Of a stretch of DNA of 64,000 nucleotides, positions 13,519-60,770 are shown piece after piece; within the stretch, counting starts at the first letter, position 1, and every line of letters starts with the position of its first letter. The stretch is from Acidimicrobiia bacterium (lineage in GTDB: Bacteria > Actinomycetota > Acidimicrobiia > Spongiisociales > ZC4RG35). The notes beneath the pieces were generated by a model. It saw only the letters and a program-made list of their open reading frames with translations, was not told the origin of the DNA and did no database searches. The stretch is from contig JBBDQN010000057.1 in assembly GCA_040905905.1 (NCBI GenBank), positions 165-64,164 on the forward strand, written 5' to 3'. The position numbers were made by a program, and so were the translations under genes.

Positions 13519-13526
13519 GGAGTGGC

Positions 13527-28453: not shown

Positions 28454-28529
28454 GGGCCGGTAGCTCAATGGTCAGAGCAGCGGACTCATAATCCGTTGGT
28501 TGCAGGTTCGAGCCCTGCCCGGCCCACCA
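28454..28529 (+). tRNA. tRNA with anticodon CAT (elongator tRNA-Met, or a tRNA-Ile2 that would be lysidine-modified). CCA is encoded.
   Basis: Cloverleaf folded by hand. Acceptor GGGCCGG/CCGGCCC, D-stem GCTC/GAGC, anticodon stem GCGGA/TCCGT with loop CTCATAA, and T-arm GCAGG-TTCGAGC-CCTGC. G1-C72 is paired, so it is not an initiator. Confidence 0.9.
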
Positions 28530-44400: not shown

Positions 44401-45609
44401 ATGAATCGGATTCAAACCCCGCGGCGCCGCGGCAACCGCGACACCCTGCTGGCATTGTTGGCATCGAATCGCATCGATCGTCGCCAGTTCCTCAAGCGAG
44501 TGGGAGCAGGTGGCGTTCTCATGTTGGGCGGCCCGGCGCTGCTGGCCGCCTGCGGGGGCGAGACCGGGGGCACCACCGGCCCCGGCGGCGATACCAACCA
44601 GCTTTTCGTCGACAACTGGATCGAGTACATCGACCTGGCCGAAGACGGCACCAACCCGACCATCGACAAGTTCACCGCCGACACCGGCATCTCGGTCACC
44701 TATACCGAAGGCGTCAACTCCAACGAGGATTGGTTCGGTAAGTACCAGCCGCAATTGGCGGCGGGTCAACCCCTCGGAATCGACCTGACCGTGCTCACCG
44801 ACTACATGGCGGCCCGGATGATCCGGCTGGGGTACGTCGAAACCCTTGATCACGCCAACATTCCCAACATGTCCAATCTGGCGGCCGCGCTCCAGAGTCC
44901 CGACTTTGACCCCAATCGCGACTACACCCTGCCCTGGCAATCCGGCTTTACCGGTATCGGATATGACATCGAGTTGACCGGCCGCGAGATCACCAGTCTC
45001 GAGGATCTGCTTGACCCGGCATTTGCGGGCAGGGTGGGCCTGTTGGAGGGATACAACGACACTGTGCCCCTGTTCCTGTTGATGGAGGGCAAAGATCCAG
45101 CCACAGCCTCGGTAGACGAGTACGTCGCCGCCGCCGGCCGAATCGGGGAAGCCGTCTCCTCGGGCCAGGTTCGCCAGATCTACGGCAACGATTACCTCGA
45201 CGCGTTACTGGCCGGCGATCTCGCGGTGGCATTGGCCTGGTCGGGCGACATCGTCGTCAACCAGGAGAGTGTTCCGTCGTTGCGATGGTCCTTCCCTCAG
45301 GAGGGGTTCATGATCTGGAACGACAACATGATCGTGCCCAAGGGGGCGGCCAACAAAGCCGGCGCCGAGGCGTGGATGAACCACTACTACGCTCCGGATA
45401 TCGCTGCCGAGTTGGCCGCATACATCTGGTACGTTTCCCCAGTTAGCGGTGCCCGCGAGGCGGTTGCTGCCATCGACCCGACCTTGGCCGATGAGCCGCT
45501 CATCTTTCCCACGGCCGAGCTACTGGCTAATTCCCACATTGTCCGGGCGTTCACGGAAGAAGAGGAGGCGATCGTCAACGTGGCCGTAGCCGAAGCTGCC
45601 GGGGTCTGA
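44401..45609 (+). CDS. Polyamine (spermidine/putrescine) ABC transporter substrate-binding protein with a twin-arginine signal, PotD/PotF-like.
   Basis: The ATG at 44401 is preceded by AAGGAG. RRQFLKRVGAGG is a Tat motif, followed by the lipobox-like LLAAC. SBP_bac_8-like body. Confidence 0.8.
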   Translation: MNRIQTPRRRGNRDTLLALLASNRIDRRQFLKRVGAGGVLMLGGPALLAACGGETGGTTGPGGDTNQLFVDNWIEYIDLAEDGTNPTIDKFTADTGISVTYTEGVNSNEDWFGKYQPQLAAGQPLGIDLTVLTDYMAARMIRLGYVETLDHANIPNMSNLAAALQSPDFDPNRDYTLPWQSGFTGIGYDIELTGREITSLEDLLDPAFAGRVGLLEGYNDTVPLFLLMEGKDPATASVDEYVAAAGRIGEAVSSGQVRQIYGNDYLDALLAGDLAVALAWSGDIVVNQESVPSLRWSFPQEGFMIWNDNMIVPKGAANKAGAEAWMNHYYAPDIAAELAAYIWYVSPVSGAREAVAAIDPTLADEPLIFPTAELLANSHIVRAFTEEEEAIVNVAVAEAAGV

Positions 45610-46703
45610 TGAGACCGAGTGCGGTTACAACCAACGATGGTGTCCCGGCGGTCGAGTTAGACAGCATCACCAAGCGGTTCGTTGACTTCACCGCGGTCGA
45701 GGATCTCAACCTCCAGATCGATGACGGTCATTTCTTCGCGCTGTTGGGTCCCTCTGGATGCGGGAAAACGACCACGTTGCGGATGATCGGAGGATTTGAG
45801 GAGCCCACCTCCGGGGTGATCCGTCTGCATGGCGAGGATGTCACCGGGCTCAAGCCGTACAAACGACCGGTGAATACCGTTTTCCAGAGCTATGCGCTCT
45901 TCCCCCATCTGACCATCTTCGAAAACATCGCCTTTGGCTTGCGCAGGCAGGGAGTCGACGACGCCGACGTGACCAAGCGGGTGGGAGACGTTCTGGAACT
46001 CGTGCAACTCACGGGTCGCGATCGCCAACGGCCCCGGCAACTGTCGGGTGGCCAACAACAGCGAGTGGCCGTAGCCCGGGCCTTAGTCAACCATCCCCGG
46101 GTGTTGTTGCTCGATGAGCCCCTTGGAGCCCTCGACCTGAAACTTCGCAAAGAGATGCAGATAGAGCTGAAACGGATCCAACAGGAGGTCGGGGTCACCT
46201 TTATCCATGTCACGCACGATCAGGAGGAGGCCATGACCATGGCCGACACCATCGCCGTGATGCACGGCGGCAGGATCGAGCGAATGGGGGGGCCGACTGA
46301 GATCTACGAAGATCCCAAGACCGAATTTGTCGCCGGTTTCCTGGGTGCCTCCAATCTGATGGGCGGCCGTCTCGAAGGCAACCGGGTGGGATTGGTGGGA
46401 GGGACCGTCGTCCATCTCACCGCGGCGGCCGCCGCCAACCAGGCGGGGGCCGTCAACATCGGGGTACGGCCCGAGAAGATCCGGCTACACGCTCCCAACG
46501 ACGAAACCGCCGCCCCCAACCGACTGGCGGGCAAGGTCACTGACGCCAGCTTCATCGGAGTCAGTACTCACTATCGGATCATGAATCCGGATCTCGGGGA
46601 GCTGGCGGTGGTTGTGCAGAACCTGGACGACCGCCGATTTGCCCTCGGCGAAGATGTGGTCGCGGCCTGGCAACCCGAGCACACCTTTGTGGTTTCGCCT
46701 TGA
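45609..46703 (+). CDS. potA: Polyamine ABC transporter ATP-binding protein (PotA-like).
   Basis: [26 protein letters not shown] and LLLDEPLGALD, plus a C-terminal TOBE-like domain. Confidence 0.9.
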   Translation: MRPSAVTTNDGVPAVELDSITKRFVDFTAVEDLNLQIDDGHFFALLGPSGCGKTTTLRMIGGFEEPTSGVIRLHGEDVTGLKPYKRPVNTVFQSYALFPHLTIFENIAFGLRRQGVDDADVTKRVGDVLELVQLTGRDRQRPRQLSGGQQQRVAVARALVNHPRVLLLDEPLGALDLKLRKEMQIELKRIQQEVGVTFIHVTHDQEEAMTMADTIAVMHGGRIERMGGPTEIYEDPKTEFVAGFLGASNLMGGRLEGNRVGLVGGTVVHLTAAAAANQAGAVNIGVRPEKIRLHAPNDETAAPNRLAGKVTDASFIGVSTHYRIMNPDLGELAVVVQNLDDRRFALGEDVVAAWQPEHTFVVSP

Positions 46704-47599
46704 CGGCGATCGCAGCTCCTACCCCGGTGAATCCAATCGCCGCGGCGGCAGCCAGGCGCCGCCGGCGCGTTCCCTATCTGCTGCTGCTGCCCGGTCTGCT
46801 CTATCTTTTTGTGTTCTATCTGATTCCGCTGATCAGTCTCGGACGGATGGCACTCCAGAGCGGCAACCTGCAAGCGGGGTACGAGCTGACGTGGCAGTGG
46901 GCGAATTTCTTGCAGGTATTCACCACCTATCGGCCCCAGTTGTTGCGCTCGCTCGGATATTCGGTTGGAGCCACCCTCATCACGCTGGCGCTTGGTTATC
47001 CCTTGGCATACGCCATCGCTTTCCGCGGCGGTCGCTGGAAGAACCTGCTTCTAGTCCTGTTGCTGATGCCCTTCCTGGTGCCGTTCCTACTGCGAACCCT
47101 GGCCTGGCGGATCATCCTCGCCGATCAGGGACTGGTGGTTGAGACCCTTAAGACGATCGGGATCCTGCCCGACGCGAATGGGCGGTTGCTGGCGACCGGA
47201 TGGGCCGTGATTGCCGGGTTGGTCTACGCATTTCTTCCCTTCATGACCCTCCCCATCTATGTGGCCCTGGAGAAGATCGATCGGTCACTGTTGGAGGCCT
47301 CAGGTGACCTCTATGCCACGCCTGCCACCGCCTTCTTCAAGGTGACCTGGCCTTTGTCGCTCACCGGTGTGATCTCCGGAACCCTTTTGACGGCGATCCC
47401 GGCGGCGGGCGATTACATCAACTCGCAACTTCTCGGTAGCCCTGCTCAGACAATGATGGGCAACGTGGTGGAGAGCAAGTTCCTATCCATCATCGACTAC
47501 CCGTCAGCTGCCGCAATCTCGCTCACCTTGATGTTGGCGATTGTGGTGGCGGTTGTCCTCTATGTTCGCTCCGTAGGCTCCGAGGAGTTGATCGCATGA
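46700..47599 (+). CDS. Polyamine ABC transporter permease (PotB-like).
   Basis: Six TM segments and an EAA loop (EASGDLYATPATAFFKVTWP). Confidence 0.85.
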   Translation: MTAIAAPTPVNPIAAAAARRRRRVPYLLLLPGLLYLFVFYLIPLISLGRMALQSGNLQAGYELTWQWANFLQVFTTYRPQLLRSLGYSVGATLITLALGYPLAYAIAFRGGRWKNLLLVLLLMPFLVPFLLRTLAWRIILADQGLVVETLKTIGILPDANGRLLATGWAVIAGLVYAFLPFMTLPIYVALEKIDRSLLEASGDLYATPATAFFKVTWPLSLTGVISGTLLTAIPAAGDYINSQLLGSPAQTMMGNVVESKFLSIIDYPSAAAISLTLMLAIVVAVVLYVRSVGSEELIA

Positions 47600-48384
47600 A
47601 GTGGCGGCGCGCCCTCCTGCCGATCTATCTGGTGGCGGCCCTTACCTACATGTTCATACCGGTCATGGTGGTGATCGCTTTCTCCTTCAATGACAACCAG
47701 GGCCGTTTCAACGTTGTCTGGCAGGGGTTCACCCTCAAACACTGGCTCGACCCCTTCGCCGACCCGGGGATCATCGAGGCCCTTGGAGTGAGCCTGGTGA
47801 TTGCGCTGCTGGCGGCAGCGGTGGCGACCGTCCTTGGCACCCTGATCGCTCTCGCCCTGGCGAGGTACAACTTCAAAGGTCGGTCGGCCACCAACGTCTT
47901 GTTGTTCTTCCCCATGGCGACGCCTGAAGTGGTCATGGGCTCGTCGCTCCTGGGGCTCTTCGTGGCGCTCAGGGTGGGAACTGGCTTTCTGACAGTTCTC
48001 CTGGCGCACGTGCTCTTTATCATTTCGTATGCGGTGGCCACGGTCCGCGCCCGCATCGTCGGCTTCGACCGACACCTCGAAGAGGCAGCGATGGATCTGT
48101 ACGCCAATGAATGGGATACCTTCAGGAAGGTCACCCTGCCCATGATCATGCCCGGTGTGTTTGCCGCCTTTCTCCTCGGGTTCGCGCTGTCGGTGGACGA
48201 CTTCATCGTGACCAACTTCACCTCGGGGTCAATTCAGACCTTCCCGGTCTACGTTTGGGGGGCGGCCCGCCGCGGAATACCGCCCCAGGTCAACGTGGTC
48301 GGGACGGCGCTGTTCATCATCACCGTCTCAGCGATGTTGTTCTATCTCCGCTGGCAGCGCCGGAGCGCCCTCAAGAAGGCCTAA
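47596..48384 (+). CDS. Polyamine ABC transporter permease (PotC-like).
   Basis: Six TM segments and an EAA loop (EAAMDLYANEWDTFRKVTLP). Confidence 0.85.
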   Translation: MKWRRALLPIYLVAALTYMFIPVMVVIAFSFNDNQGRFNVVWQGFTLKHWLDPFADPGIIEALGVSLVIALLAAAVATVLGTLIALALARYNFKGRSATNVLLFFPMATPEVVMGSSLLGLFVALRVGTGFLTVLLAHVLFIISYAVATVRARIVGFDRHLEEAAMDLYANEWDTFRKVTLPMIMPGVFAAFLLGFALSVDDFIVTNFTSGSIQTFPVYVWGAARRGIPPQVNVVGTALFIITVSAMLFYLRWQRRSALKKA

Positions 48385-49292
48385 GTCGTGGGCGTCACCG
48401 GCACGGCGTGACGGTGCCACCGACGCCAGGCCAGCCAAGCGATCCCCGCGATGGGGCCAACTGTTATGACCAAGATGGGCAGCACGTTGAGAACGAACCG
48501 GATCAGGAAGTCGGCAACGGCTTGCAGCGCCTGGATCGTGTCACGCAGCGCTCCTTTGGCAACCGTCAATGGCTCCCAGGCCGGTTCCCCGACGATCGGA
48601 GCCGAAGCCGGTGAGGGACTGATCCCGATCTCAAGTGTGGCCATCGCCACTAGGTTCTCTAGGAGCTGTTTACGACCCTCGAGCCGTTCGATTTCACCGC
48701 GGGTTTGCCGGATCTGATCGAAGACTTGAAGGAGCTTGGAGGGATCGGCGTCTTCGTTGTCGCGGAGCTCGGCAAGCAGTGCCAGCAACTCTGTCTCCAG
48801 GGCCTCGAGGTTGCGTAGCTGGGCTTGGATGTCGACGAACTCTTCGGTCACGTCCTGGCTCGACAACGACTCGCTCACGACCCTGTCAGCCTCCTGTCGG
48901 ATCGCCGTCAGGGTGGCGGTCAGCCGATCGGCCGGGACCCGCACCGTCATCGAGATGAACGGCTGGTCATCATCGTCTTCGACCTCCTGCACGGTTGCCG
49001 CCGCCACGAAGCCACCGGATCCTTGCACCAGGGCCGTGAGCCGGTCGAAGACCAACCGGGTCTTGGCAGCCTCGAGTTGCATGCTGGCGTCGTAGATCAC
49101 TTTGCGGTCGATCGGGGGGACGACACCGACGTCGTATTCATCAAAGTCTGCACGGGCGAAGCCAGCGCCGGTTTCTTCCGCTGCGGCTGTCGTGGTTGCG
49201 GCTGCCTGGCTCGTCGTGGTGGTGGCGGCTCCTTGTGCACACGCCGCCAACGTCAATACAGACATCATCAACAAGGCGATACGCCTTTTCAT
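48381..49292 (-). CDS. DUF4349-like lipoprotein with a coiled-coil region and a C-terminal TM anchor.
   Basis: I trimmed the start to the ATG at 49292, with AAGGAGG 6 nt upstream. MKRRIALLMMSVLTLAAC lipobox. Central EEFVDIQAQLRNLEALETELLALL coiled coil. C-terminal TM helices. The family assignment is tentative. Confidence 0.55.
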   Translation of the reverse strand: MKRRIALLMMSVLTLAACAQGAATTTTSQAAATTTAAAEETGAGFARADFDEYDVGVVPPIDRKVIYDASMQLEAAKTRLVFDRLTALVQGSGGFVAAATVQEVEDDDDQPFISMTVRVPADRLTATLTAIRQEADRVVSESLSSQDVTEEFVDIQAQLRNLEALETELLALLAELRDNEDADPSKLLQVFDQIRQTRGEIERLEGRKQLLENLVAMATLEIGISPSPASAPIVGEPAWEPLTVAKGALRDTIQALQAVADFLIRFVLNVLPILVITVGPIAGIAWLAWRRWHRHAVPVTPTT

Positions 49293-49385
49293 TTGCTCCT
49301 CCTTGGGGAGGCGGCGTTGCCTGCGACGACCACGCCGCTGACAGTTCGACGCCGGCGGTGGGGCAGAGGTTCCTGAGAAACCCCA

Positions 49386-49445: not shown

Positions 49446-49478
49446 CCCTTTGAGGTGGGGTTCCGCCACGGTCGCGCC

Positions 49479-50450
49479 ATGAATGATGCGCGAGAGGTGA
49501 TCGTGGGTTTGTCGGAGCTTCAACATGGAGTAGTCAACCGGAAGCAGCTGCACCAATCGGGAGTTGGTTCTCGGGCGCTGCGCCATCAGATCGAGTCTGG
49601 GTTCATCGAACCAATGTCACCCCAGGTCTTGCGACTGGTCGGCAGTCCCAGGACCGATGCCCATCTAGCGATGGCCGGCGTGCTTGACGCTCCTGGCACC
49701 GCGTACCTGTCTCATGTGGCGGCCGCGGCGTGGTGGAGGATCCCCGGATTCGATCTCAAGCCACCAATCGAGGTTGTCATACCCTGGCAAGGCACCAATC
49801 GCAGGACCCGACTCGCCCAGGTCCACTATCACCGGGGTCTTCCACCTGAACACCTCGCCACCCTCGCGGGCATTCCCGTCGTCTCCCCGGCTCTCCTCAT
49901 TTTCCTTCTGGCCGGGACCGAGGCTACCGGTCGAGCCGAAAGAGCTCTGGATCATGCTCTGTCGATGCGGATCCTGAAACTTCGAACAATGCACGATTTG
50001 CTCAAACAGCTCGGGGCCCGAGGCCGCGATGGCATTACGGCGGTTCGTTGCATGCTTGCTGTCAGACCACCAGACTATGTGGCGCCGCAAAGTGGGCTCG
50101 AGTCGCGGGTGGAGCGTTTGGCTCTGGACGTTGGAGTCCAGCTCCGCCGACAGGTCGATGTAGGGGATGATCTGGGTTGGATTGGACGGGTCGACTACGA
50201 ACTCGACGACTGCACTGACGTGATCGAGGTTTTATCCGACCGCTACCACTCCGCTCTGCTTGACCGCACCGCCGACTCGATCCGCTTCGCCCGTCTGCAA
50301 GCGTCAGGTCGCCGGCTGCTCACGATCTGGGACCACGATGTCTGGTCGCGACCAGAAGAGGTTCGCCACCAAATCCACCTGTTTTGGCTCGGACGATCGA
50401 CACCAGGGGAGCAGAACTACGCGCCAGAACGGAAGGGTCTTGGGGTCTAA
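49479..50450 (+). CDS. AbiEi_4-like N-terminal domain + DUF559 (Vsr-like endonuclease fold) C-terminal domain protein.
   Basis: N-terminus GVVNRKQLHQSGVGSRALRHQIESGFIE. C-terminus ESRVERLALDVGVQLRRQVDV...VDYELDDCTDVIEVLSDRYH...IRFARLQASGRRLLTIWDHDVW. ATG 49479 preferred; the track start is GTG 49455. Confidence 0.7.
   Translation: MNDAREVIVGLSELQHGVVNRKQLHQSGVGSRALRHQIESGFIEPMSPQVLRLVGSPRTDAHLAMAGVLDAPGTAYLSHVAAAAWWRIPGFDLKPPIEVVIPWQGTNRRTRLAQVHYHRGLPPEHLATLAGIPVVSPALLIFLLAGTEATGRAERALDHALSMRILKLRTMHDLLKQLGARGRDGITAVRCMLAVRPPDYVAPQSGLESRVERLALDVGVQLRRQVDVGDDLGWIGRVDYELDDCTDVIEVLSDRYHSALLDRTADSIRFARLQASGRRLLTIWDHDVWSRPEEVRHQIHLFWLGRSTPGEQNYAPERKGLGV
50382..50441. repeat. A 60-bp direct repeat, copy B. 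It forms the last 20 codons of the DUF559 gene (FWLGRSTPGEQNYAPERKGL).
   Basis: TTTTGGCTCGGACGATCGACACCAGGGGAGCAGAACTACGCGCCAGAACGGAAGGGTCTT. It has one mismatch to copy A, and the spacing between copies is 996 bp. Confidence 0.9.
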
Positions 50451-51466
50451 ACTCCGGCCGCTCGTTCGGCCATGCCGTTGAGGATCTCGAGGACCACCCG
50501 GTTGGCCAAGTAGGCGGTTATCTCGCCGGGGCCGTCATAGGGGGGCGATACCTCGACTACGTCGGCACCTATCACGTTGAGCTCTCTACCCAGCCTGCGG
50601 ACCGTGTCGAGGATCTGGCGAGAGGTGAGCCCGCCGGGCTCGGGGGTGCCGGTGCCGGGGGCGAAACCCGGATCCACCACGTCTATGTCGACCGAAATGA
50701 ACACTCCCTTGGCGCCTCCACCAATGGCAAAGTCGACCGCCTCGTCGACAACTGTGCGAAGGCCACGATCTTCGATCTCGTTCATCATGTAGCTGCGCAT
50801 CTTCTGGGTCTTCATCCAGGCCATCACGTGCGGCTCCGGCCAGTAGCCACGAAGCCCGATCTGGACGAAGCGGTGACCGGGAACCGCTCCCGACTCGATC
50901 AGACGTCGCATCGGAGTGCCGTGTCCGTAGAGCTGGCCGTTCTGGAGCTCGCCGGTGTCGGCGTGGGCGTCGAAGTGGATCAGTGCCACCTCACCAAAAC
51001 CAAACGCGCGCGCCACACCTGTGGCGTTCGAGAAGGTGACGGTGTGGTCGCCGCCGAGCACGATCGGAACCTTGCCCGCTCGTGCCACCGTCTCCACAGT
51101 GTCGGTGATCCGCTCCAAAGAGAGCTCAATGTTGCCCGGGACGACGTAGACATCGCCGATGTCGACCACTTTGAGCAATCGCAGCGGGTCGATGCCTGTG
51201 GGGAGATGAGGCCGGTACCCGTCCATCGCCCCGTAGTCGGCTTCGCGGATTGCGGCCGGGCCAAACCGGGCACCGGGGCGGTAGGTAGTGCCCCAGTCGA
51301 AGGGAGCACCAAGGATCACAACACCGGCGTCGTCTATCTCGTCCAGCCGACGGGCGGGGACCCCGAGGAAGGAATTGCGGGAGGCAAACGAGACGTACTC
51401 GGCCGAAGCAAAGGGTATTTCGGAGGCCCTTTTCTCGTATGGAACCGAAACCGGGTCGTGCTGCAT
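50447..51466 (-). CDS. speB: Agmatinase / ureohydrolase (arginase family).
   Basis: Mn-binding motifs GGDHTVT, DAHADT and SVDIDVVDP. Sharper substrate assignment (agmatine vs guanidinobutyrate etc.) is not possible from the sequence. Confidence 0.8.
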   Translation of the reverse strand: MQHDPVSVPYEKRASEIPFASAEYVSFASRNSFLGVPARRLDEIDDAGVVILGAPFDWGTTYRPGARFGPAAIREADYGAMDGYRPHLPTGIDPLRLLKVVDIGDVYVVPGNIELSLERITDTVETVARAGKVPIVLGGDHTVTFSNATGVARAFGFGEVALIHFDAHADTGELQNGQLYGHGTPMRRLIESGAVPGHRFVQIGLRGYWPEPHVMAWMKTQKMRSYMMNEIEDRGLRTVVDEAVDFAIGGGAKGVFISVDIDVVDPGFAPGTGTPEPGGLTSRQILDTVRRLGRELNVIGADVVEVSPPYDGPGEITAYLANRVVLEILNGMAERAAGV

Positions 51467-51553: not shown

Positions 51554-52735
51554 GTGCAAGCACCACAGGGGATAGAGACTTCGCTGGGATCAACGGCCGG
51601 TTCTAATCGGCGCGGGCAAGTCTTTACCTTGTTGTTGTGGGGTTTGGTGGCAACGCTCTATTTCACAAGCCCTTTCCTACTGGTGGTTCTCGGGTGGTTC
51701 CAGGAGCCTTTTTCCGACCTGGGCGGAGGCGACAGGGTTTCCCACCGGGTCCATGAGATTCTTTTTGGTGTGACCTTTGCCCAGGTGATGGCCGGGGCGA
51801 TCAGTCAGCTCCTGCGGCCCCGACAGTGGTCAGCAGGGATGCTGCAAACACTGATCGCTATCGCCGCTTTCGTGTTGGTCCTGGCGGCGGTAGGCAGAAG
51901 GGAATGGCTCGGAGTTCTGTTTCTGTCCCTGGCGGGCGCCGCCGCTTGGCTGCATCCAGCCGGGAGAGAACTCTGGCGTGGTCGATGGCGACCGAGCCCG
52001 TTTCTCCTTGTGTTGGCTGTCGCCGGGGTAATGCCGTGGGTATCAGTGGCTGAAGCGAACCTCCTCAAGGCTCAGCTTGAAGCAGCGGACCACCTGACTC
52101 ATTGGGGTGGGGTGGCAACGTTTGCAGTGGTGCAGTTGCTCCTGGCTTTCCTGGCGGCAATGCGTCCCCCGGGCTTTCGTTTGGTCGCAGCCTCGGTGGG
52201 AGCAGCCGGCCTTATCTACTTCGCGGCATCCCAGCTCTTTCCGTTTGATGCTTCCGCCGAACCTCTGACCTTTTCTCCGTGGCTCTTGTTGTGGTCGTTG
52301 GCATGGATGGCCATTCCGTTTCTGCCGGAGGAGAAACGCCGGAGAGTGGGCTGGCCCCGGTTGGTTAGGGGGGGCCTGGCTGGGCTCGGGCTCATGATCC
52401 TGATCCTGGGAGGAACAATCGCCGGCGCAGACGAGGAATCCAACATCCCTCATGGACTCTCTGTCGATTACACCGCGGCGGATCGGCTGACTTGCCTTGA
52501 ATGCCACGCCACGGCATTAAAAGGCGCCACCGTCATTCCCCACGAGTTGGGGAGAATCTGCGAGGGAGACGTCTGCTGGGACGGTCGCAGTGACTGCATG
52601 GGCTGTCACCGGTATGACCCGTCCTTGATCGCCGCGGCGTCCCTACCCGTCATGGAAACAACAACGGGCGTACGCCAGGGTGGGATTGGCTTGCTGGCCG
52701 ATCAGGTGCTCGCCCTGAGACGTTATGGCCGTTGA
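51554..52735 (+). CDS. Polytopic membrane protein with a C-terminal extracytoplasmic segment carrying two CXXCH haem-c binding motifs.
   Basis: About 8 predicted TM helices. The C-terminus carries CLECH and CMGCH within 45 aa. GTG start at 51554; the start is uncertain. Confidence 0.5.
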   Translation: MQAPQGIETSLGSTAGSNRRGQVFTLLLWGLVATLYFTSPFLLVVLGWFQEPFSDLGGGDRVSHRVHEILFGVTFAQVMAGAISQLLRPRQWSAGMLQTLIAIAAFVLVLAAVGRREWLGVLFLSLAGAAAWLHPAGRELWRGRWRPSPFLLVLAVAGVMPWVSVAEANLLKAQLEAADHLTHWGGVATFAVVQLLLAFLAAMRPPGFRLVAASVGAAGLIYFAASQLFPFDASAEPLTFSPWLLLWSLAWMAIPFLPEEKRRRVGWPRLVRGGLAGLGLMILILGGTIAGADEESNIPHGLSVDYTAADRLTCLECHATALKGATVIPHELGRICEGDVCWDGRSDCMGCHRYDPSLIAAASLPVMETTTGVRQGGIGLLADQVLALRRYGR

Positions 52736-54995
52736 ATTCGTCGGGCGTAGTCCGATAATGCGCACGGCGTGGTGGGGGATCACGTTGGTCACGATCTCGG
52801 TGGCGGTCATTGGCTTCGGGAATGTCTTGGACGGCCCAACTGAAACTCTGATCCAGGGGCCTTTTGCGGTTGATCCCAATCTGGGAGACCGGCTGGAAGC
52901 AGTGCTGTCGGCCTCCTTCATCTCCTGGAGCCAGCTCGCGATCCATATCGTCGGTTTCGGGCTCTTTGTCGCGCTCGGAATGCTCATTGCGGCCCGATCG
53001 TCGGAGCGAATGCCGCTCCTGGCGTCCGCCATGCTCATCACCCTGGCCACGAGCCTGTTCGTGCCCTTTTCAAAGATCTCTGGACCCTGGGCGGCGATAG
53101 CGCGGGTGATAGGCGAGGTCACACCCGACCAAATGGCAGGTTTCTGGATCTCGCTATCGGGGATATTGCTGCTGGCGTTCTTGTTGTTGGTCCCGTCGGG
53201 GCGACCAAAGCGGGCGGCCTTGGTGGTCCTCGCATCGTTACTGCTCTTGGGGATAGCCGCGGCGGTTTTCCCGGGATGGGCGTTTGACCCGCACACCCTG
53301 CCATCGCCCTGGCGTCAGCTGTGGACCATCGCCGTTCCGGTCGGGGCAATGGCGACAACATGGATCAGGCTGACCAGGCTCGATGACGCAGTACGTCGGC
53401 AATGGCAGCCCGTACTGGTAGCACTCTCCGTGATCGTCGGCACTTACCTGGTGCTGGTGTTGCTGCGGCCCGAGTTGCAAACCGACGCCTTCGGGCTGGT
53501 CCTGGTCACGCCTCGACTGCAGGCGCTGTACGGACTCAACACCTTGCTTCTGCTCACGGGTGCCGTGTTTGCGCTCCCGTTCTCGATAGTTCTGGCCGTG
53601 GTTCGATATCGATTGTTCGAGATCGACCTCCTGGTCAACCGGGCGCTGGTCTACGGCTCACTGACGGCGATTGTCACAGTGATGTTCGGAGCGGTCACTC
53701 TGGTGACCGTCGTCGTGATCGGAGGATTGCTGGGTCAGGGTATGACCGGTCTGCCGATTGGACAGACGGCCGCTCTCGCCGGAGTTCTGACTGGATCCGT
53801 CCTGGCCGGAAGCTTGCGACCGCTCCGCAAGCGCGTGCAACGAGCCGTCGATCGACGGTTCTATCGCGAGAAGTTCAACGCGGAAGAGGCTCTCGAGAGG
53901 CTTGTGGCCCGATTGGGCGATGTGGTCGATCGGGAGCTGCTCAACGCCGAAGTCGACTCTCTGTTTGCGGCCACCCTGCAGCCCACATGGGCCACCCTCG
54001 TCCGTGCCGATCAGCTCCCCCCCGGCTTGGATCCTGCCGGCACCGAGCCCCAGATTTCCTCGCAACCGGGCATCGCAGTGGTTGTTCCCTTGCTGGTAAG
54101 TGGTGATCCAATTGGGGCCCTGCTGATGGGTCATCGCAAATCGGGCGTTCCCTATCGGGGGATTGAGCTTGCCTTTCTCCGCAGGGTTGCTGATCGGCTC
54201 GGCCCAGCCCTCCGGATCGTCGAACTGGTTGAGCGTCAGGAGGCCGATCGCACGCGTCGGGAAAGCGTAGAGCAGGAACTGTCCGTTGCCAGACGTATCC
54301 AGCGCGAGTTGCTGCCCCGTGAGGTTCCTCAGCCCCAAGGGTGGGCATTTACCGTCCACTACGAACCCGCCCGTGAGGTAGGAGGTGACTTCTATGACTT
54401 CTACAAGCTTGGGCCGAGAAGGATGGGAATCGCCGTCGGCGATGTGACTGACAAGGGAATGCCGGCAGCGCTGGTCATGGCGTCTTGTCGCACGGTCTTA
54501 CGCGGAACTGCTCTTGGTGCTCTCGCTCTGACTCCGGGCGGGGTGCTGGCTCAGGCCAACGGCCTTCTGGTGGGCGACATTCCGAGGGGAATGTTCATCA
54601 CTTGCCTCTTCGGAGTTCTCGAACTCGATACCGGCCGGTTCTGGTTTGCCAACGCCGGTCACAATCCTCCCCAACACCGCCATCGGGACGGATCGTCCGA
54701 GGTACGGGCGCGGGGGATGCCACTCGGGCTTTTGGCGGGAATGGATTACGAAGAGATGGAAGTGGTGCTGGAACCGGGCGATGGCCTCATCCTCTCCTCC
54801 GATGGTATTACGGAGTGCCGTAATCCGACCGGAGAGATGTTCGGATTTGATCGGTTGAGCGAGACGATTTCGTCGGCGACCCGGAGCGCGATAGAGACGT
54901 TGTTGGCCGCTCAGTCCGAGTTCGTTGGGAAGGACTGGGTGCAGGAGGACGACATCACGCTGGTCGAGATCACTCGAGATCCTTCCGCAGGTTGA
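52725..54995 (+). CDS. Membrane-embedded sensor with GAF and a PP2C-type Ser/Thr phosphatase (SpoIIE/RsbU-like) domain.
   Basis: About 10 N-terminal TM helices. A GAF-like middle region. PP2C motifs GGDFYDF, GDVTDKGMPAALVMA and ILSSDGITE. Alternative ATG at 52758. Confidence 0.8.
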   Translation: MAVEFVGRSPIMRTAWWGITLVTISVAVIGFGNVLDGPTETLIQGPFAVDPNLGDRLEAVLSASFISWSQLAIHIVGFGLFVALGMLIAARSSERMPLLASAMLITLATSLFVPFSKISGPWAAIARVIGEVTPDQMAGFWISLSGILLLAFLLLVPSGRPKRAALVVLASLLLLGIAAAVFPGWAFDPHTLPSPWRQLWTIAVPVGAMATTWIRLTRLDDAVRRQWQPVLVALSVIVGTYLVLVLLRPELQTDAFGLVLVTPRLQALYGLNTLLLLTGAVFALPFSIVLAVVRYRLFEIDLLVNRALVYGSLTAIVTVMFGAVTLVTVVVIGGLLGQGMTGLPIGQTAALAGVLTGSVLAGSLRPLRKRVQRAVDRRFYREKFNAEEALERLVARLGDVVDRELLNAEVDSLFAATLQPTWATLVRADQLPPGLDPAGTEPQISSQPGIAVVVPLLVSGDPIGALLMGHRKSGVPYRGIELAFLRRVADRLGPALRIVELVERQEADRTRRESVEQELSVARRIQRELLPREVPQPQGWAFTVHYEPAREVGGDFYDFYKLGPRRMGIAVGDVTDKGMPAALVMASCRTVLRGTALGALALTPGGVLAQANGLLVGDIPRGMFITCLFGVLELDTGRFWFANAGHNPPQHRHRDGSSEVRARGMPLGLLAGMDYEEMEVVLEPGDGLILSSDGITECRNPTGEMFGFDRLSETISSATRSAIETLLAAQSEFVGKDWVQEDDITLVEITRDPSAG

Positions 54996-56391
54996 AGACG
55001 ACGGTTTGTAGGTCGGTGAACTCCTCGATCCGCTGCCGTCCCCAGCCGGTCTCGGTACCCGCCGCTCCTCCAAATGGTTGAAACGTCTCCCAGAAGTCGG
55101 TGGAGTCGTTGACGATGACGGTCCCCGCCCGGATCCGATCCGCGTACCAGAACGCCTTGCTGACATCGTTGGTGAAGACGGCTGCCTGGAGGCCAAGATG
55201 AGTGCGGTTGGCGATTCCCACCGCGTCCTCGTCGCTGGAGGCGGTGAGGATCGGTACCACCGGTCCGAACGACTCTTCTCGCGAGACCAAAGACTCTTCC
55301 GGCACGCCGTCGATCACCGTGAACTCGTAGAAGAGGTCGGTGGCGTAGCCGGAGGCGCGGCCCCCTCCCATCAGGACCTCGGCTCCCCGGGCGCGGGCAT
55401 CTTCCACATGGCGATCCATCTTGGCCGCCACCGGTTCGTTGTTGAGCGGACCCATGTTGGTGGAGTCGTCAAAGGGATCACCCAGGCGCACATCTTCAGC
55501 GGCCTTGAGGGTTGCCTCCACGAATTGGTCGTGGAGTTCCTCTACGACGATGACGCGTTCGGTGGCGGTGCAGACCTGACCGGCGTTGTAGTAAGCCCCA
55601 TAGACCGCGGCGGTGGCCGCAGCCTCGACATCAGCGTCGCCCGCCACAATCAACGGACCGTTGCCCGACATCTCCATGATCGATCTCTTCAGACCCATCA
55701 TCGAAACGATGCGCTTGCCGGTCTCGGACGACCCAGTGAAGCTGATGCCGTCGACGTCGGGGTGGGTCACCAGCCATTCACCGATGTCGCCTGCCCCCGG
55801 GATCACCGACAGAGCGCCGCGGGGAAATCCGGCCTCCTCGATGGCTTTGGCCGCCTCCAGCATCGCCCAGCAAGTGTTGAGGGGCGGTTTGACTATCACC
55901 GCGTTCCCGGTGGCCAGCCCTGGCCCCACAGTCTCCATCGGGATCATCACCGGAAAGTTCCACGGTGTGATGGCCACCCAGACGCCGACGGGGCGGCGAA
56001 CAGTGAACATCCTGCGGTTGCGTTCCGTCGTGGGGATGAGGTCGCCTTTCATTCTCTTGACGTCCTCGGCGGCGATGTGGAGGTAGTCACCGGATTCGGC
56101 GATGTCATCGATGGCCTCGGCCTTGAACGGCTTCCCTTGTTCCAGGGTGAGGATGCGGGCGATGTCCTCGATGCGATCCTGCCAGATCGCGTAGGCCCGC
56201 AGGCAGAGTTCGGCTCGTTCGAATGCCGACCAATGACGCATCTCTTCGGAGGCCCGGCGACCGGCCGCCACCGCCCCGTCGATATCGGCCTTGCTGGCTA
56301 ACGGCACGTTGGCAATGTGGCTGCCGGTGGCGGGTGAACGTAACTCGTAGTGCTCCGAACCGCTGCCTTCGGTCCATTCCCCGGCGATCAA
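54970..56391 (-). CDS. Aldehyde dehydrogenase family protein.
   Basis: FTGSSETGKRI, EMSGNGP and GQVCTATERV (catalytic Cys). TTG start at 56391 per the track; the true start may differ. Confidence 0.85.
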   Translation of the reverse strand: MIAGEWTEGSGSEHYELRSPATGSHIANVPLASKADIDGAVAAGRRASEEMRHWSAFERAELCLRAYAIWQDRIEDIARILTLEQGKPFKAEAIDDIAESGDYLHIAAEDVKRMKGDLIPTTERNRRMFTVRRPVGVWVAITPWNFPVMIPMETVGPGLATGNAVIVKPPLNTCWAMLEAAKAIEEAGFPRGALSVIPGAGDIGEWLVTHPDVDGISFTGSSETGKRIVSMMGLKRSIMEMSGNGPLIVAGDADVEAAATAAVYGAYYNAGQVCTATERVIVVEELHDQFVEATLKAAEDVRLGDPFDDSTNMGPLNNEPVAAKMDRHVEDARARGAEVLMGGGRASGYATDLFYEFTVIDGVPEESLVSREESFGPVVPILTASSDEDAVGIANRTHLGLQAAVFTNDVSKAFWYADRIRAGTVIVNDSTDFWETFQPFGGAAGTETGWGRQRIEEFTDLQTVVFNLRKDLE

Positions 56392-56739: not shown

Positions 56740-58089
56740 ATGAGTATGCAAGGCGCCCATACAGCCGAGTGGTTCAACCGCGCACGAGCGGTTTTGGTCA
56801 ACGGCGTTTCCAGCGGTTTCCGCTATCTGGGAGACGACGACACCCTCGTGATCTCTCGCGGCGAAGGCGGCCACGTCTTCGACATGGATGGCAAGCGTTA
56901 CATCGACTACCAGTGTGCGTGGGGGCCGATAATCCTCGGGCACGCCGATCCCTACGTCACTGAGGCCGTAGTACAGGCCGCCCGCGACGGAACCACTTTC
57001 GCCATGACCCAGCGGCGCGAGGTGGAAGCGGCCGAGGCGTTGCTGGGCGCCGTCAAGTGGGCCGACAAGATTCGTTTCACCAACACCGGGACGGAAGCGA
57101 CCATGCATGCGCTCCGGCTTGCCCGGGGATGGGCTGGCCGCGACCTGGTGCTGAAGTTCGAGGGTCACTACCACGGCACCCATGACTACTTGTTGTTCAC
57201 TACCGCCGGCGCACCGCCCGCCCACCTCGGGTCGAGGCTCCGACCCATTCCCTACCAGGCGTCGTCGGGCATACCCGACGCTATCCGCACCTACGTCAGG
57301 ACCCTGCCGTTCAATGACATTGAGGCTGTCAACGACTTCTTCGACGATCATGGTCACGAAATCGCGGCGGTGATCGTCGAACCTATGGCCGGCAACGCTT
57401 TTGGAATCCTGCCGGAGCCGGGGTTTCTGGAGGCCCTGCGGGCCCGGTGTAGCGAGCACTATGCAGTCCTGATCTTCGACGAGGTAAAAACCGGCTTCAG
57501 GCTCTCATTGGGCGGGGCGGTCGAGACCTTTGGAGTGGTGCCCGACATCGCGACCTATGCCAAGGCGCTCGGCAACGGTTTCCCGGTTGCCGCTATCGCC
57601 CTCAGTTCTGACCTCGTCGAAGGCTGGAAACTCGGAGGCATCGCCCAGGCCGGCACCTATTCGGGCAACGGCGTCGCCACCGCGGCGGCGATCGCCACGC
57701 TCGACCGGCTTCAGAACACGGACGCATATGACCGGATCTACAAAGTCGGGCGGGCTCTCATGGAGGGCCTGGAACGAGTCCTCGCCGAGTTTGGGGTCGA
57801 AGGCAAGGTCCTCGGGCACCCTGGGATGTTCTCGGTCTATCTTGGTGAGGGCCGACCCACCGAATACCGCGACATCGCCAATCACAACGCCCGCCTCTAC
57901 ACGGCCGTGGTCGAAGGCATGATCGAACGAGGGGTCATGCCCTGCGTCGATGCCCGCGAACCATGGTTCACATGTGCAGCTCACACCATGGAAGACGTCG
58001 ACCAGACCCTCGTCGCATTCGCGATGTCGTTAAAAGAGTCGTTGGCCCGAGCCGGGTCTCTGCCGTCACATCTTGACGAGGCTGAGTGA
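56740..58089 (+). CDS. Class-III PLP aminotransferase (glutamate-1-semialdehyde aminomutase-like subfamily).
   Basis: LVNGVSSGFRY, FEGHYHGT, IFDEVKTGFRL and TYAKALGNGFPVAA (Lys). Confidence 0.85.
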   Translation: MSMQGAHTAEWFNRARAVLVNGVSSGFRYLGDDDTLVISRGEGGHVFDMDGKRYIDYQCAWGPIILGHADPYVTEAVVQAARDGTTFAMTQRREVEAAEALLGAVKWADKIRFTNTGTEATMHALRLARGWAGRDLVLKFEGHYHGTHDYLLFTTAGAPPAHLGSRLRPIPYQASSGIPDAIRTYVRTLPFNDIEAVNDFFDDHGHEIAAVIVEPMAGNAFGILPEPGFLEALRARCSEHYAVLIFDEVKTGFRLSLGGAVETFGVVPDIATYAKALGNGFPVAAIALSSDLVEGWKLGGIAQAGTYSGNGVATAAAIATLDRLQNTDAYDRIYKVGRALMEGLERVLAEFGVEGKVLGHPGMFSVYLGEGRPTEYRDIANHNARLYTAVVEGMIERGVMPCVDAREPWFTCAAHTMEDVDQTLVAFAMSLKESLARAGSLPSHLDEAE

Positions 58090-59465
58090 CCTCGTATAGG
58101 TCGTTGAGCTTTTGGCACGACACCGCCGGTGAGGACCTGGTGCCGCGGCCAGCTCTTGATGGTCTCGTTGAGGCTGACCTCGCCATCGTAGGAGCCGGGT
58201 ACACGGGCCTCTGGACCGCCTATTACTTGAAGAAGGTTCGGCCCGACCTGCGAGTCGTAGTCGTCGAAGCCGAGGTAGCCGGGTTTGGGGCTTCGGGTCG
58301 CAATGGCGGGTGGGCCACCGGGGAAATCGCCGGCAACCGAGCGGCGATGGCCCGCCTCCATGGCCGCGAACCGGTCCAGCGGTTGGTGCGGACAATGTTT
58401 GAGACAGTCGACGAGATCGCCCGGGTGTTGGGAGAGGAGGGGATCGAGTGCCATTTCGAAAAGGGTGGGATCCTCTGCTTCGCAACGAATTCCGCCCATG
58501 TCGTGCGCCTTCAACACGAGCTTGACCACCAGCGATCATGGGGACTGGGAGAGGACGACTATCGCTGGCTGACGGCCGATGAGCTGGACGACCGAGCCCG
58601 GGTGGCCGGGTCGCTGGGTGCCGTCTACACCCCCCATGCCGCAGCAATCCATCCCGGTCGGTTGGTGCGCGGTCTGGCCGCGGCGGTCGAGCGCTCCGGA
58701 GTGACGATCTATGAAAGGAGCCGGGCGGGGATTGTGGAGCCGGGCATCGTTGTCACCGATCACGGCAGCGTGCGTGCCAAGACGGTGTTGCGTTGCACCG
58801 AGGCCTTTACTCGCGACCTCCCCGGTCAGCGCCGCAACTACCTCCCCGTCTACTCGTTGATGGTGGCCACCGAGCCGCTCGGCGGGGCCTTCTGGACCGA
58901 TGTGGGCTTCGGTCGACGCGAGGTTTTCAACGACGCCCGTCACCTGGTCATCTACGGCCAACGCACTTTTGACGGACGGCTCGCGTTTGGGGGGCGGGGT
59001 GGCCGTTATCACTTCGGGTCGATGGTCGATCCTTCGCTCGATCGTCAGCCCCGGGTCCACGAGGCAGTCGCCCGCATCCTTCGCACGCTCTTTCCGGCGG
59101 CTGCCGATGCGCGGATCACCCACACCTGGGGCGGGGCGGTGGCGATTCCCCGCGACTGGCGCCCGGCCGTGGTCTTCGATCGGACTTCGGGCTTTGGCTG
59201 GGCGGGTGGTTACGTCGGAGAAGGAGTGGCGGCGTCCAACCTGGCCGGTCGAACTTTGGCCGACCTGGTACTGGAACGCGACACCGATCTCACCAGGCTT
59301 CCCTGGGTGCAGCACCGGGTTCGCCGCTGGGAGCCCGAACCGCTGCGGTTCCTGGGTGTTAACGCCGCGATCCGGCTCGCACCCATCGCCGACCGGATGG
59401 AGGCACGCACGGGTCGACCCTCTCGAGTCATGGGAGGCCTGCTCGACACCCTGACGGGCAGATAA
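58086..59465 (+). CDS. FAD-dependent oxidoreductase (DAO family, gamma-glutamylputrescine-oxidase-like).
   Basis: DLAIVGAGYTGLWTAYYL is an FAD dinucleotide motif. 459 aa. ATGA-type coupling to the aminotransferase gene. Confidence 0.8.
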   Translation: MTSYRSLSFWHDTAGEDLVPRPALDGLVEADLAIVGAGYTGLWTAYYLKKVRPDLRVVVVEAEVAGFGASGRNGGWATGEIAGNRAAMARLHGREPVQRLVRTMFETVDEIARVLGEEGIECHFEKGGILCFATNSAHVVRLQHELDHQRSWGLGEDDYRWLTADELDDRARVAGSLGAVYTPHAAAIHPGRLVRGLAAAVERSGVTIYERSRAGIVEPGIVVTDHGSVRAKTVLRCTEAFTRDLPGQRRNYLPVYSLMVATEPLGGAFWTDVGFGRREVFNDARHLVIYGQRTFDGRLAFGGRGGRYHFGSMVDPSLDRQPRVHEAVARILRTLFPAAADARITHTWGGAVAIPRDWRPAVVFDRTSGFGWAGGYVGEGVAASNLAGRTLADLVLERDTDLTRLPWVQHRVRRWEPEPLRFLGVNAAIRLAPIADRMEARTGRPSRVMGGLLDTLTGR

Positions 59466-59498
59466 CCCGACCAACCCGATATAGGTGATAGAAACCAG

Positions 59499-60770
59499 GT
59501 GATGACACCGCTCCCTTGGTCGTTGCTGCCGGATTCCGCCGAGGAGGGTCCCGTCGGGGAGCTGGAGATCGGAGGTTGTTCCACGCTCGAGCTGGCGGAG
59601 CAGTTCGGCACCCCTCTCTTTGTCTATGACGAAGCCCATCTCCGCACTCGCGCCCGACAGGCTCGGGAGCTCTTTGGGGACGGTGCCGTTTACGCAGCGA
59701 AGGCTTTCCTCTGCAAGGCCATGGCCGGGCTGGCGCACGATGAAGGTCTCCGGATCGACGTCGCCACCGGGGGTGAGATGTTCGTGGCCCTGGCGACCGG
59801 GGTCCCTGGTGACCGACTCGTGATGCACGGCAACAACAAAAGTGTCGAGGAGCTGGCCGAGGCCGCTCAGGCCGGAGTGGGCCGGCTGGTGGTCGACAAC
59901 TTTGACGAGTTGGACCGGGTCGAGGAACTCCATGAGCAAACCGGCCACATATTCGATGTTCTCTTGCGGGTGACGCCGGGGGTGGAGGCTCACACTCATC
60001 ACTACATCGCCACAGGTCAGGACGACACCAAGTTCGGATTCACCCTCTCAACCGGCGCCGCTACAGCGGCGGTGAGACGGGCACGATCGATAAGAGGGAT
60101 CCGGCTGCGGGGAATTCACCTTCACATCGGTTCACAGGTGTTCCTGGTCGATTCCTTCGCAGCGGCGCTGGGGGTGGTGGCGTCGTTCGTCAAAATCCAC
60201 GACCTGGAGGAGTTATCGATGGGGGGCGGGCTGGGTGTGGCCTATGTCGAGGGTGAGACGGCGCCGTCGATGGTCGACTGGGCGCGGATGCTGACCACCG
60301 CAGCGGCCGACGCCGGGATCAGTGCTGCCTTGTCGGTGGAGCCCGGCAGGGCGATCGTTGCCCAGGCTGCCATCACCATTTACACCGTCGGAACGATCAA
60401 GGAGATCCCGGGCGTGCGGACCTATGTTGCGGTCGACGGGGGGATGAGTGACAACCCGCGACCGGTCCTCTACGGGAGCGGGTATGAGACTTTCCTGCCA
60501 AGAGCGGTTAGGGCCACCCGGCCGCGGGCTGTACGACTGGTCGGGAAACACTGCGAATCCGGTGATGTCCTCGTGATGAAAGGAATGGTCCCCGACGATC
60601 TCGGGGTGGGCGACCTCATCGCCACGCCCGTCACCGGGGCTTACGGCCACTCGATGGGATCCAACTACAACAAAGTGGGTCGGCCCGCGGTCGTTTTCGC
60701 GAAGGACGGCGTTCCCCGCCTGGTCGTGCGTCGCGAGACGTATGAAGACTTGGTGCGGAACGACCTGTGA
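59499..60770 (+). CDS. Orn/DAP/Arg decarboxylase family-2 PLP enzyme (diaminopimelate-decarboxylase-like).
   Basis: YAAKAF (PLP Lys), HIGSQ, EPGRAIVA and GKHCESGD are hallmark LysA-type motifs. Confidence 0.85.
   Translation: MMTPLPWSLLPDSAEEGPVGELEIGGCSTLELAEQFGTPLFVYDEAHLRTRARQARELFGDGAVYAAKAFLCKAMAGLAHDEGLRIDVATGGEMFVALATGVPGDRLVMHGNNKSVEELAEAAQAGVGRLVVDNFDELDRVEELHEQTGHIFDVLLRVTPGVEAHTHHYIATGQDDTKFGFTLSTGAATAAVRRARSIRGIRLRGIHLHIGSQVFLVDSFAAALGVVASFVKIHDLEELSMGGGLGVAYVEGETAPSMVDWARMLTTAAADAGISAALSVEPGRAIVAQAAITIYTVGTIKEIPGVRTYVAVDGGMSDNPRPVLYGSGYETFLPRAVRATRPRAVRLVGKHCESGDVLVMKGMVPDDLGVGDLIATPVTGAYGHSMGSNYNKVGRPAVVFAKDGVPRLVVRRETYEDLVRNDL

Follow-up and report, generated by a model that had tools for sequence, protein, structure and literature searches.

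A predicted dihaem membrane cytochrome paired with a SpoIIE/PP2C phosphatase as a candidate redox-sensing system in Acidimicrobiia

A stretch of 64,000 nucleotides from an Acidimicrobiia bacterium (contig JBBDQN010000057.1, assembly GCA_040905905.1), hereafter called the window, carries two overlapping open reading frames (ORFs) whose products are read here, with a confidence slightly better than even, as a transmembrane redox sensor of two proteins that would feed a partner-switching phosphatase. The first, ORF1, is predicted to combine a histidine-rich membrane module, a linker helix and an extracytoplasmic NapB-like tail with the sites for two c-type haems, and the second, ORF2, is predicted to join a receptor-like membrane domain to a GAF-like domain and a SpoIIE/PP2C phosphatase domain (Table 1). 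An earlier note, made from the letters of the DNA, had proposed a membrane haem sensor that signals to a PP2C phosphatase, and comparison with related sequences now supports that idea, as the tail is predicted to lie outside the membrane, its Cys and His residues are kept among homologues and the gene pair is conserved.

Sigma factors of the general stress response and of development are governed by partner-switching phosphatases, and the signals that reach these enzymes through their membrane input domains are mostly unknown. The pair offers a concrete candidate for such an input, namely a predicted extracytoplasmic dihaem cytochrome carried on a dedicated partner protein. Two apparently undescribed membrane domain families come with it: a His-rich module of eight transmembrane (TM) helices, which also occurs in haloarchaea and as a cupredoxin fusion, and an input domain of approximately ten TM helices with a putative likeness to seven-transmembrane (7TM) receptors, which is found on PP2C enzymes and is partly like the N-terminus of a histidine kinase. 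The ORF1–ORF2 system itself has so far been seen only in uncultured Acidimicrobiia, judging from the sequences compared. If the module binds a redox cofactor, the pair would give bacteria a new means of sensing, through the membrane, the redox state of their respiration or of their surroundings.

The NapB-like tail of ORF1 and its side of the membrane

The tail was compared in an alignment of 31 close ORF1 homologues with 42-87% identity (A1) and in another of 28 tails that includes distant family members with identity down to 24% (A3). Only eight positions are invariant in the 28 tails, H300, C314, C317, H318, H330, C348, C351, and H352, and these would be exactly the attachment sites and ligands for two bis-His c-haems. 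Among the 31 close homologues, C314 and C317 are invariant and H318 is kept in at least 90%, its sole exception being a frameshifted sequence; H300 and H330 are kept as well, together with a further Cys pair, C336 and C341, that is absent from the more distant tails. Since the CXXCH motifs are invariant in homologues, they are not regarded as a chance occurrence. The earlier note had placed the two motifs, CLECH and CMGCH, about 40 residues apart; both are present, and their spacing is 34 residues (314-318 versus 348-352). The wider family was classified on 190 sequences, made up of 150 listed from the module search described below and the close homologues of ORF1, and approximately 70 of them are extended at the C-terminus and bear exactly two CXXCH motifs there; no extended member departs from this number except truncated ones, which have fewer.

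A profile of the 28 tails matched NapB chains in the PDB, with E-values (E) of 3.7e-8 for 1OGY_B, 5.4e-8 for 1JNI_A, and 4.6e-7 for 3ML1_B, and the alignment spans the full unit from the upstream distal histidine in “P-x-x-P-H” through CXXCH and H to the second CXXCH. Weaker matches of the same profile were to NrfA, NrfB, flavocytochrome c3, and MtrC-type units. Scanned one by one, single members of a set of 80 diverse sequences (A2) weakly match Cytochrome_CBB3, Paired_CXXCH, cytochrome c7, and c3; the NapB family of Pfam (PF03892) was matched by two members only, below the gathering threshold (E = 0.016-0.087), and ORF1 of the window gave no PF03892 match in the Pfam scan. On the strength of the NapB profile match and the weak matches to cytochrome c families, the tail would best be described as a NapB-like dihaem cytochrome c domain, which agrees with the dihaem c-type tail first suggested for it. 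It is not filed as a NapB orthologue because it falls below the Pfam threshold, is anchored in the membrane and has no NapA near it.

The likeness to NapB lies in the linear unit (V/I)PH...CXXCH...H...CXXCH, in the extracytoplasmic place predicted for the tail and in the two expected bis-His haems. NapB differs in being a secreted soluble subunit, whereas the ORF1 domain forms the C-terminal tail of a 9-TM protein, and the close ORF1 subfamily carries the extra Cys pair. Neither NapA, NapC nor a molybdopterin nitrate reductase was found among the genes tabulated for the related loci or directly beside the pair, the window outside these neighbours being unscanned by family libraries.

Nine TM helices were predicted for ORF1 by a hydropathy scan together with the helices of an AlphaFold2 model, eight belonging to the module and one to the linker; the polytopic character noted earlier thus holds, and the earlier count of about eight becomes nine. 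An Arg-rich inner loop, EEKRRRVGWPRLVR, precedes the linker helix TM9. The inner loops of the 31 homologues carry on average 1.9-2.5 Lys and Arg residues per loop, while the outer loops carry 0.2-1.2 and are acidic. Because of this positive-inside bias across the 31 sequences, ORF1 is predicted to have its N-terminus inside and its C-terminus outside, with an extracytoplasmic tail. Longer homologues of approximately 440 amino acids have a two-helix hairpin inserted between TM8 and TM9, which adds two helices and keeps the parity, so that the side of the tail is unchanged. In another family member (P0150), a plastocyanin/azurin domain (PF00127, E = 1.3e-8), a domain type that is extracytoplasmic, stands at the position of the tail. 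A cytoplasmic location of the CXXCH motifs, which the earlier note had named as grounds for giving up its proposal, is not predicted, as the positive-inside rule and the parity of the hairpin both place the tail outside.

The His-rich module, the phosphatase partner and their coupling

The membrane module of ORF1 had not been singled out in the earlier note and appears to be an undescribed family. An exhaustive HMMER search over 1.84 billion cluster representatives (E<=1e-3) returned 204 clusters only, and 113 of the 190 classified sequences are stand-alone modules without CXXCH, most of them approximately 250-300 amino acids long. At least 90% conservation was found among the 80 diverse members at H64, H67, H134-P135, P161, H180, H183, G207, and S226, and M187, which is Val in ORF1 of the window, is approximately 80% conserved in the family. 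By class, H64 and H67 are conserved in 81% of tailed and 93-94% of stand-alone members, H134-P135 in 96-99% of stand-alone modules, and H180 and H183 of the second HxxH in 81-95%. The conserved residues cluster on both membrane faces, and the mid-membrane region holds few polar residues that are conserved. The two segments of the form HxxH-helix-Arg-Pro are spaced identically and can be aligned in register, though weakly (hhalign E = 0.0096, probability 4%), and an ancient 2x4-TM duplication of the module is possible on this pattern.

ORF1 has no Pfam or NCBIfam family match in library scans, and the 80 members scanned singly gave no credible Pfam match to the module; the hits to DUF2070, TgpA_N, and AmiS/UreI, each in just 3-6 of the 80, were set aside as noise. 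Neither a sequence-profile match nor a fold relative was found for it in the PDB, nor any profile match to Ni_hydr_CYTB/cytochrome b561, ferric reductase, CopD, Caa3_CtaG, or MHYT. The records are equally silent on a name: the protein identical to ORF1 is a hypothetical protein of an Acidimicrobiia metagenome-assembled genome (locus tag WD651_15965), and its 42 close homologues are all nameless or “hypothetical”, those with an organism name being from Acidimicrobiia. Stand-alone members of 279 amino acids, unannotated hypothetical proteins, occur in several Haloferax genomes.

Besides the NapB-like tail, a second kind of electron carrier is joined to the module. P0150 has a bona fide plastocyanin-type domain, and P0124 from Chloroflexota, named “cupredoxin domain-containing protein” by NCBI, and its cluster-mate P0212 show a weak cupredoxin-type Pfam match below the cut-off. 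As the module is fused, in different lineages, to two unrelated electron-carrier domains that face its conserved His cluster, it would most likely hold a bound redox cofactor, and the most economical reading is that the outer cluster of four His, with Met where present, forms a site for haem b or copper. An FTR1 iron-permease gene lies approximately 1.7 kilobases (kb) from the gene of a plastocyanin/cupredoxin fusion, on the opposite strand (L019). In three other members (P0061, P0073, and P0081), a PspC domain (PF04024) is inserted between the module and the dihaem tail.

The association of ORF1 with ORF2 was followed in related loci from nine GTDB species representatives, all Acidimicrobiia, and two further contigs. 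An ORF2 orthologue (39-64% identical) stands directly downstream of ORF1 in 11 of 11 of these loci and also in three distant ones, where ORF1 identity is 34% (L013), 36% (L015), and 35% (L020). All 13 intact related loci offer a start codon for the downstream gene with a 1-11-nucleotide overlap of the ORF1 stop; the overlap measures 8 nucleotides in nine loci, 11 in L008 as in the window, 4 in both L013 and L015, and 1 in L011. The recorded gene calls give overlaps of 4-44 nucleotides. The flanking genes differ between loci. With the overlap kept and the flanks changing, the pair is seen as an autonomous and probably translationally coupled unit. Both ORFs lie in the window as the earlier note had described them, with the 11-nucleotide overlap of stop and start read directly in the sequence, and the co-occurrence it had proposed to look for extends to all related loci examined.

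A few loci depart from the regular form. Both genes are frameshifted and split into pieces at L009 (6001-9558), and P0034 has lost the latter half of its tail to a frameshift; assembly errors or pseudogenes are the probable explanation. At L013 (3914-5886), a PspC-containing variant of ORF1 is followed by an ORF2-like membrane protein with a 4-nucleotide overlap.

In ORF2, the SpoIIE domain (PF07228) was matched at E = 8.3e-45, with 153.5 bits against a cut-off of 25. The GAF match falls below its own cut-off (E = 0.0026, 18.7 bits versus 22.4), and the aligned relatives of ORF2 reach at best E = 2e-7 for GAF_3 and 1.2e-5 for GAF_2. Of the architecture first described, the approximately ten TM helices and the phosphatase domain are thus upheld, and the GAF domain is sub-threshold in ORF2 itself and more strongly matched in its relatives. 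The orthologues strongly keep GGDFYD, GDVTDKG, and AGHN, while SDG and EDDIT, present in ORF2, are less conserved in the orthologue alignment. The nearest solved relatives of the catalytic domain are 3eq2 (a Pseudomonas response-regulator PP2C), Rv1364c, SiaA, and SpoIIE, which we take to be phosphatases of the partner-switching type.

The membrane domain of ORF2, absent from Pfam, has a putative 7TM-receptor-like fold, and its best-conserved part is TM7-TM10 with RYRLxDIDxLxNRALVYG...RRFYR. Its family includes many stand-alone proteins of approximately 400-450 amino acids. Residues 284-474, covering TM8-10 and the juxtamembrane part, resemble the N-terminal region of a HisKA_3 kinase with 31% identity (L017 2087-4207), and the input domain is therefore probably common to PP2C and histidine-kinase outputs.

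Natural fusions link the two families more closely. In P0069, P0201, and P0202, the His-module lacks the haem tail and runs straight into an ORF2-like 10TM-GAF-SpoIIE protein, and the join fits the predicted topologies, as the module ends inside and ORF2 begins inside. Since the haem tail is missing from these fused versions, the His-module is probably the part that contacts the phosphatase. At full length, P0201 adds an RsbW-like HATPase_c_2 domain, and two overlapping STAS genes follow; this locus (L018 5793-10112) encodes the 1191-amino-acid His-module-10TM-GAF-SpoIIE-HATPase_c_2 protein, the two STAS proteins and a 250-amino-acid protein of unknown type. Another locus (L016 3778-8567) has two stand-alone ORF2-type 10-TM proteins, then a GAF-SpoIIE-HATPase_c_2 enzyme that is 48% identical to the GAF-PP2C part of ORF2, and then two STAS genes. 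Partner switching, raised in the earlier note as a possibility, gains support from these fused and split relatives, which adjoin an RsbW-like kinase domain and STAS genes; the support comes from the relatives, as the pair's own window and the orthologous loci are without STAS or kinase genes. Both L016 and L018 also have, a few genes upstream, a gene for a BTAD/AAA_16 regulator that is read from the opposite strand.

Proposed signalling route, known systems and competing explanations

In the proposed mechanism, the NapB-like domain with two low-spin bis-His c-haems would swap electrons with extracytoplasmic carriers or the respiratory chain, and its redox state would be passed to the cofactor site of the adjoining 8-TM module, which offers four outer His and usually Met, as well as one inner His-Pro, with haem b or copper as the most likely cofactor. 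The module would touch the receptor-like bundle of ORF2 within the bilayer, and a conformational change would pass along the conserved juxtamembrane helix, then by way of the GAF domain, and switch the cytoplasmic SpoIIE/PP2C domain. The phosphatase would then remove the phosphate from a STAS-type anti-anti-sigma protein whose gene lies elsewhere in the genome. Redox state, not a gas, would be the signal sensed, because bis-His haems have no open coordination site. We infer haem attachment, the cofactor of the module, the contact of ORF1 with ORF2, the direction of the signal and the substrate from sequence comparison. A wider and distinctly more tentative proposal is that the module is an unrecognised redox relay binding a cofactor (haem b or copper), with interchangeable carrier domains, NapB-like in Acidimicrobiia and plastocyanin-like in Chloroflexota, and that in Acidimicrobiia it is hard-wired by translational coupling or fusion to a membrane domain resembling G-protein-coupled receptors, so that electrons moving outside the membrane would directly gate a partner-switching PP2C phosphatase and, with it, the activity of sigma factors.

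Phosphatases such as RsbU, RsbP, SpoIIE, Rv1364c, and SiaA share with ORF2 the catalytic family PF07228, and relatives of ORF2 have the RsbW-like kinase domain and STAS neighbours; in general plan, the pair is also like those partner-switching enzymes whose N-termini are sensory. The RsbU-type systems differ in their input, which in ORF2 is a receptor-like domain of approximately ten TM helices with a separate cytochrome-bearing membrane partner, and no STAS or kinase gene is adjacent in the window. A further parallel is CyaC of Sinorhizobium meliloti, an adenylate cyclase whose dihaem-B membrane anchor responds to quinones (PMC10463352, citing Wissig et al., 2019). Both have a polytopic redox-cofactor domain through which a signalling enzyme in the cytoplasm learns, or in the pair would learn, how the respiratory chain stands, and CyaC differs in being a single polypeptide with b-haems inside the membrane and a cyclase output, in contrast to the predicted outside c-haems, separate His-module and PP2C output of ORF1 and ORF2. 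The Pfam scan of the 80 members gave no sequence relationship of the ORF1 family to CyaC.

CoxC is an integral-membrane MHYT sensor involved in copper-dependent CO sensing (PMC11347149). The module is like MHYT domains in having conserved His and Met near the outer face, which are thought to hold a metal, and some stand-alone members read MTHY or GHY at the second motif. It differs in having eight TM helices, possibly 2x4, and none of the 80 members has an MHYT Pfam match; the MHYT architecture consists of six TM helices as 3x2. Covalent periplasmic c-haem is known as a signalling input in deltaproteobacterial chemoreceptors, namely GSU0582 and GSU0935 of Geobacter and DcrA of Desulfovibrio; in these the receptor polypeptide itself contains the single-haem domain, PAS-like or periplasmic, and the outputs are of the methyl-accepting chemotaxis protein type. 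ORF1 differs from these sensors in its NapB-like dihaem unit on a separate partner protein and in the PP2C output. In the literature, no description was found of a c-haem, membrane-redox or His-module input to PP2C partner switching.

Several observations weigh against the sensor reading. Attachment of haem to ORF1 is a prediction from comparison, and the AlphaFold2 model of the tail is of low confidence (predicted local distance difference test, pLDDT, approximately 40-66), which is expected for a haem-dependent fold and lends no support. No cytochrome c maturation genes were found in the 64-kb window or in the related loci of 10-17 kb, nor a WWD motif of the CcsA/ResC type, nor any further genuine CXXCH gene. 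STAS or RsbW-like matches are absent around the pair, both in the window and at the orthologous loci. The fused versions without the haem tail indicate that the tail is dispensable for coupling. Finally, the module occurs without a phosphatase at the plastocyanin fusion (L019 2793-4166) and in Haloferax (L012 6001-6840), where a stand-alone module has no adjacent signalling gene or phosphatase, and its primary role may therefore not be signalling.

This last point belongs equally to the leading competitor, which is itself rather unlikely: ORF1 would be a working redox enzyme or transporter, for example a quinol:cytochrome/cupredoxin oxidoreductase or a metal reductase-importer, and ORF2, as the co-sensor of a “transceptor” comparable to BceB-BceS or DctA-DcuS, would monitor its activity or substrate flux and not the ambient redox potential. 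As an importer, ORF1 would bind Cu or Fe at its outer His4(Met) site, and reduction of the metal would fall to the dihaem or cupredoxin domain. The residue clusters on both faces of the module and the FTR1 gene near the cupredoxin fusion fit such a role, as does the nature of NapB and plastocyanin, which are pure electron carriers. On the other hand, the module has no likeness to transporter or quinol-oxidoreductase families, in the 80 members or in fold, its mid-membrane is poor in conserved polar residues, the FTR1 association comes from one locus, where the two genes lie on opposite strands, and the Acidimicrobiia pair never stands beside other conserved respiratory or transport genes.

It is improbable that the CXXCH pairs carry no haem and instead provide Cys and His ligands for Zn, Cu, or Fe-S, or make disulfides, in an extracytoplasmic domain sensing metal or thiol-oxidative stress. 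The lack of maturation genes in the window and related loci and the additional cysteines C336 and C341 of the close subfamily would suit this explanation, and the PspC-domain variants hint at envelope-stress signalling; the C336/C341 pair, however, is missing from the distant tails, the invariant set is exactly two CXXCH and two distal His, and the profile aligns end to end with the haem-binding units of NapB (E = 3.7e-8). Actinomycetota moreover generally make c-type cytochromes, for example QcrC. Still less credence is given to ORF1 as a mere insertion or stability partner of ORF2, or to a meaningless adjacency of the two genes. ORF2-type 10-TM domains do exist without ORF1 (L016 and L017), but the cofactor-type residues of ORF1 are near-invariant, the stop/start overlap persists even where ORF1 identity has fallen to 34-38% and the flanks have changed, and independent gene fusions exist.

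Feature coordinates and the surroundings of the pair

The features of the two genes are listed in Table 1. The guanine plus cytosine content of the window is approximately 62% and even along the whole 64 kb, and a promoter and terminator scan gave no signal above chance.

Table 1. Features of ORF1 and ORF2, with positions counted from the first letter of the window.
Feature	Position	Strand	Remarks
ORF1	51554-52735	+	GTG start, 393 amino acids; 8-TM His-rich module, linker TM helix, NapB-like tail
His-rich 8-TM module, residues ~20-258	51611-52327	+	AlphaFold2 pLDDT mostly >90
First HxxH, H64-R-V-H67, outer end of TM2	51743-51754	+	Conservation; TM2 of the model starts at residue 65
H134-P135, cytoplasmic end of TM4	51953-51958	+	Conservation
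Second HxxH, H180-L-T-H183, outer end of TM6	52091-52102	+	Conservation
Linker TM helix TM9, residues ~268-292	52355-52429	+	AlphaFold2 helix 268-289; hydropathy 274-292
Predicted NapB-like dihaem cytochrome c domain, residues ~297-356	52442-52621	+	Profile of 28 tails
CXXCH motif 1, C314-L-E-C317-H318	52493-52507	+	Invariant in 28 tails
CXXCH motif 2, C348-M-G-C351-H352	52595-52609	+	Invariant in 28 tails; at least 90% in 31 close homologues
Overlap of ORF2 ATG and ORF1 TGA	52725-52735	+	11 nucleotides, read from sequence
ORF2	52725-54995	+	ATG start, 756 amino acids; ~10-TM receptor-like domain, GAF, SpoIIE/PP2C
ORF2 membrane input domain, residues 1-~397	52725-53915	+	Motifs RYRLxDIDxLxNRALVYG and RRFYR
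GAF-like domain, residues ~400-500	53922-54224	+	Approximate borders; Pfam GAF at 441-495
SpoIIE/PP2C catalytic domain, residues 564-751	54414-54977	+	PF07228, 153.5 bits

The pair sits in an apparent polyamine/agmatine catabolism cluster (45609-48384 and 56740-60770 on the forward strand; 50447-51466 and 54970-56391 on the reverse strand), with genes for an arginase-family (agmatinase-like) protein, an aldehyde dehydrogenase, a class-III aminotransferase, and a flavin adenine dinucleotide (FAD) oxidoreductase. The aldehyde dehydrogenase gene converges on ORF2 and overlaps its end by 26 nucleotides. From their sequences, the upstream genes look like a PotA-like ATPase and two permeases, and 59499-60770 looks decarboxylase-like. 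A functional link of the pair with these genes was considered and rejected because the neighbours are not conserved beside the pair elsewhere and the flanks in other loci are different.

Four further ORFs of the window contain CXXCH (12673-13881, 34517-35440, 39877-40341, and 40948-41325) and were rejected as cytochromes because they occupy alternative frames, overlap ORFs of greater length and match no family. Upstream of the pair, 48381-49298 on the reverse strand encodes a DUF4349 protein (E = 7e-40) that is lipoprotein-like at its N-terminus and has a TM segment at its C-terminus; the ORF as listed reaches upstream to 49586, and the DUF begins well inside it. Between the DUF4349 and agmatinase genes lies a forward-strand ORF of 331 amino acids (49455-50450) without a Pfam match at E<=0.001. 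A tRNA-Met gene (CAT) at 28454-28529 on the forward strand is the sole Rfam/ARAGORN match in the window.

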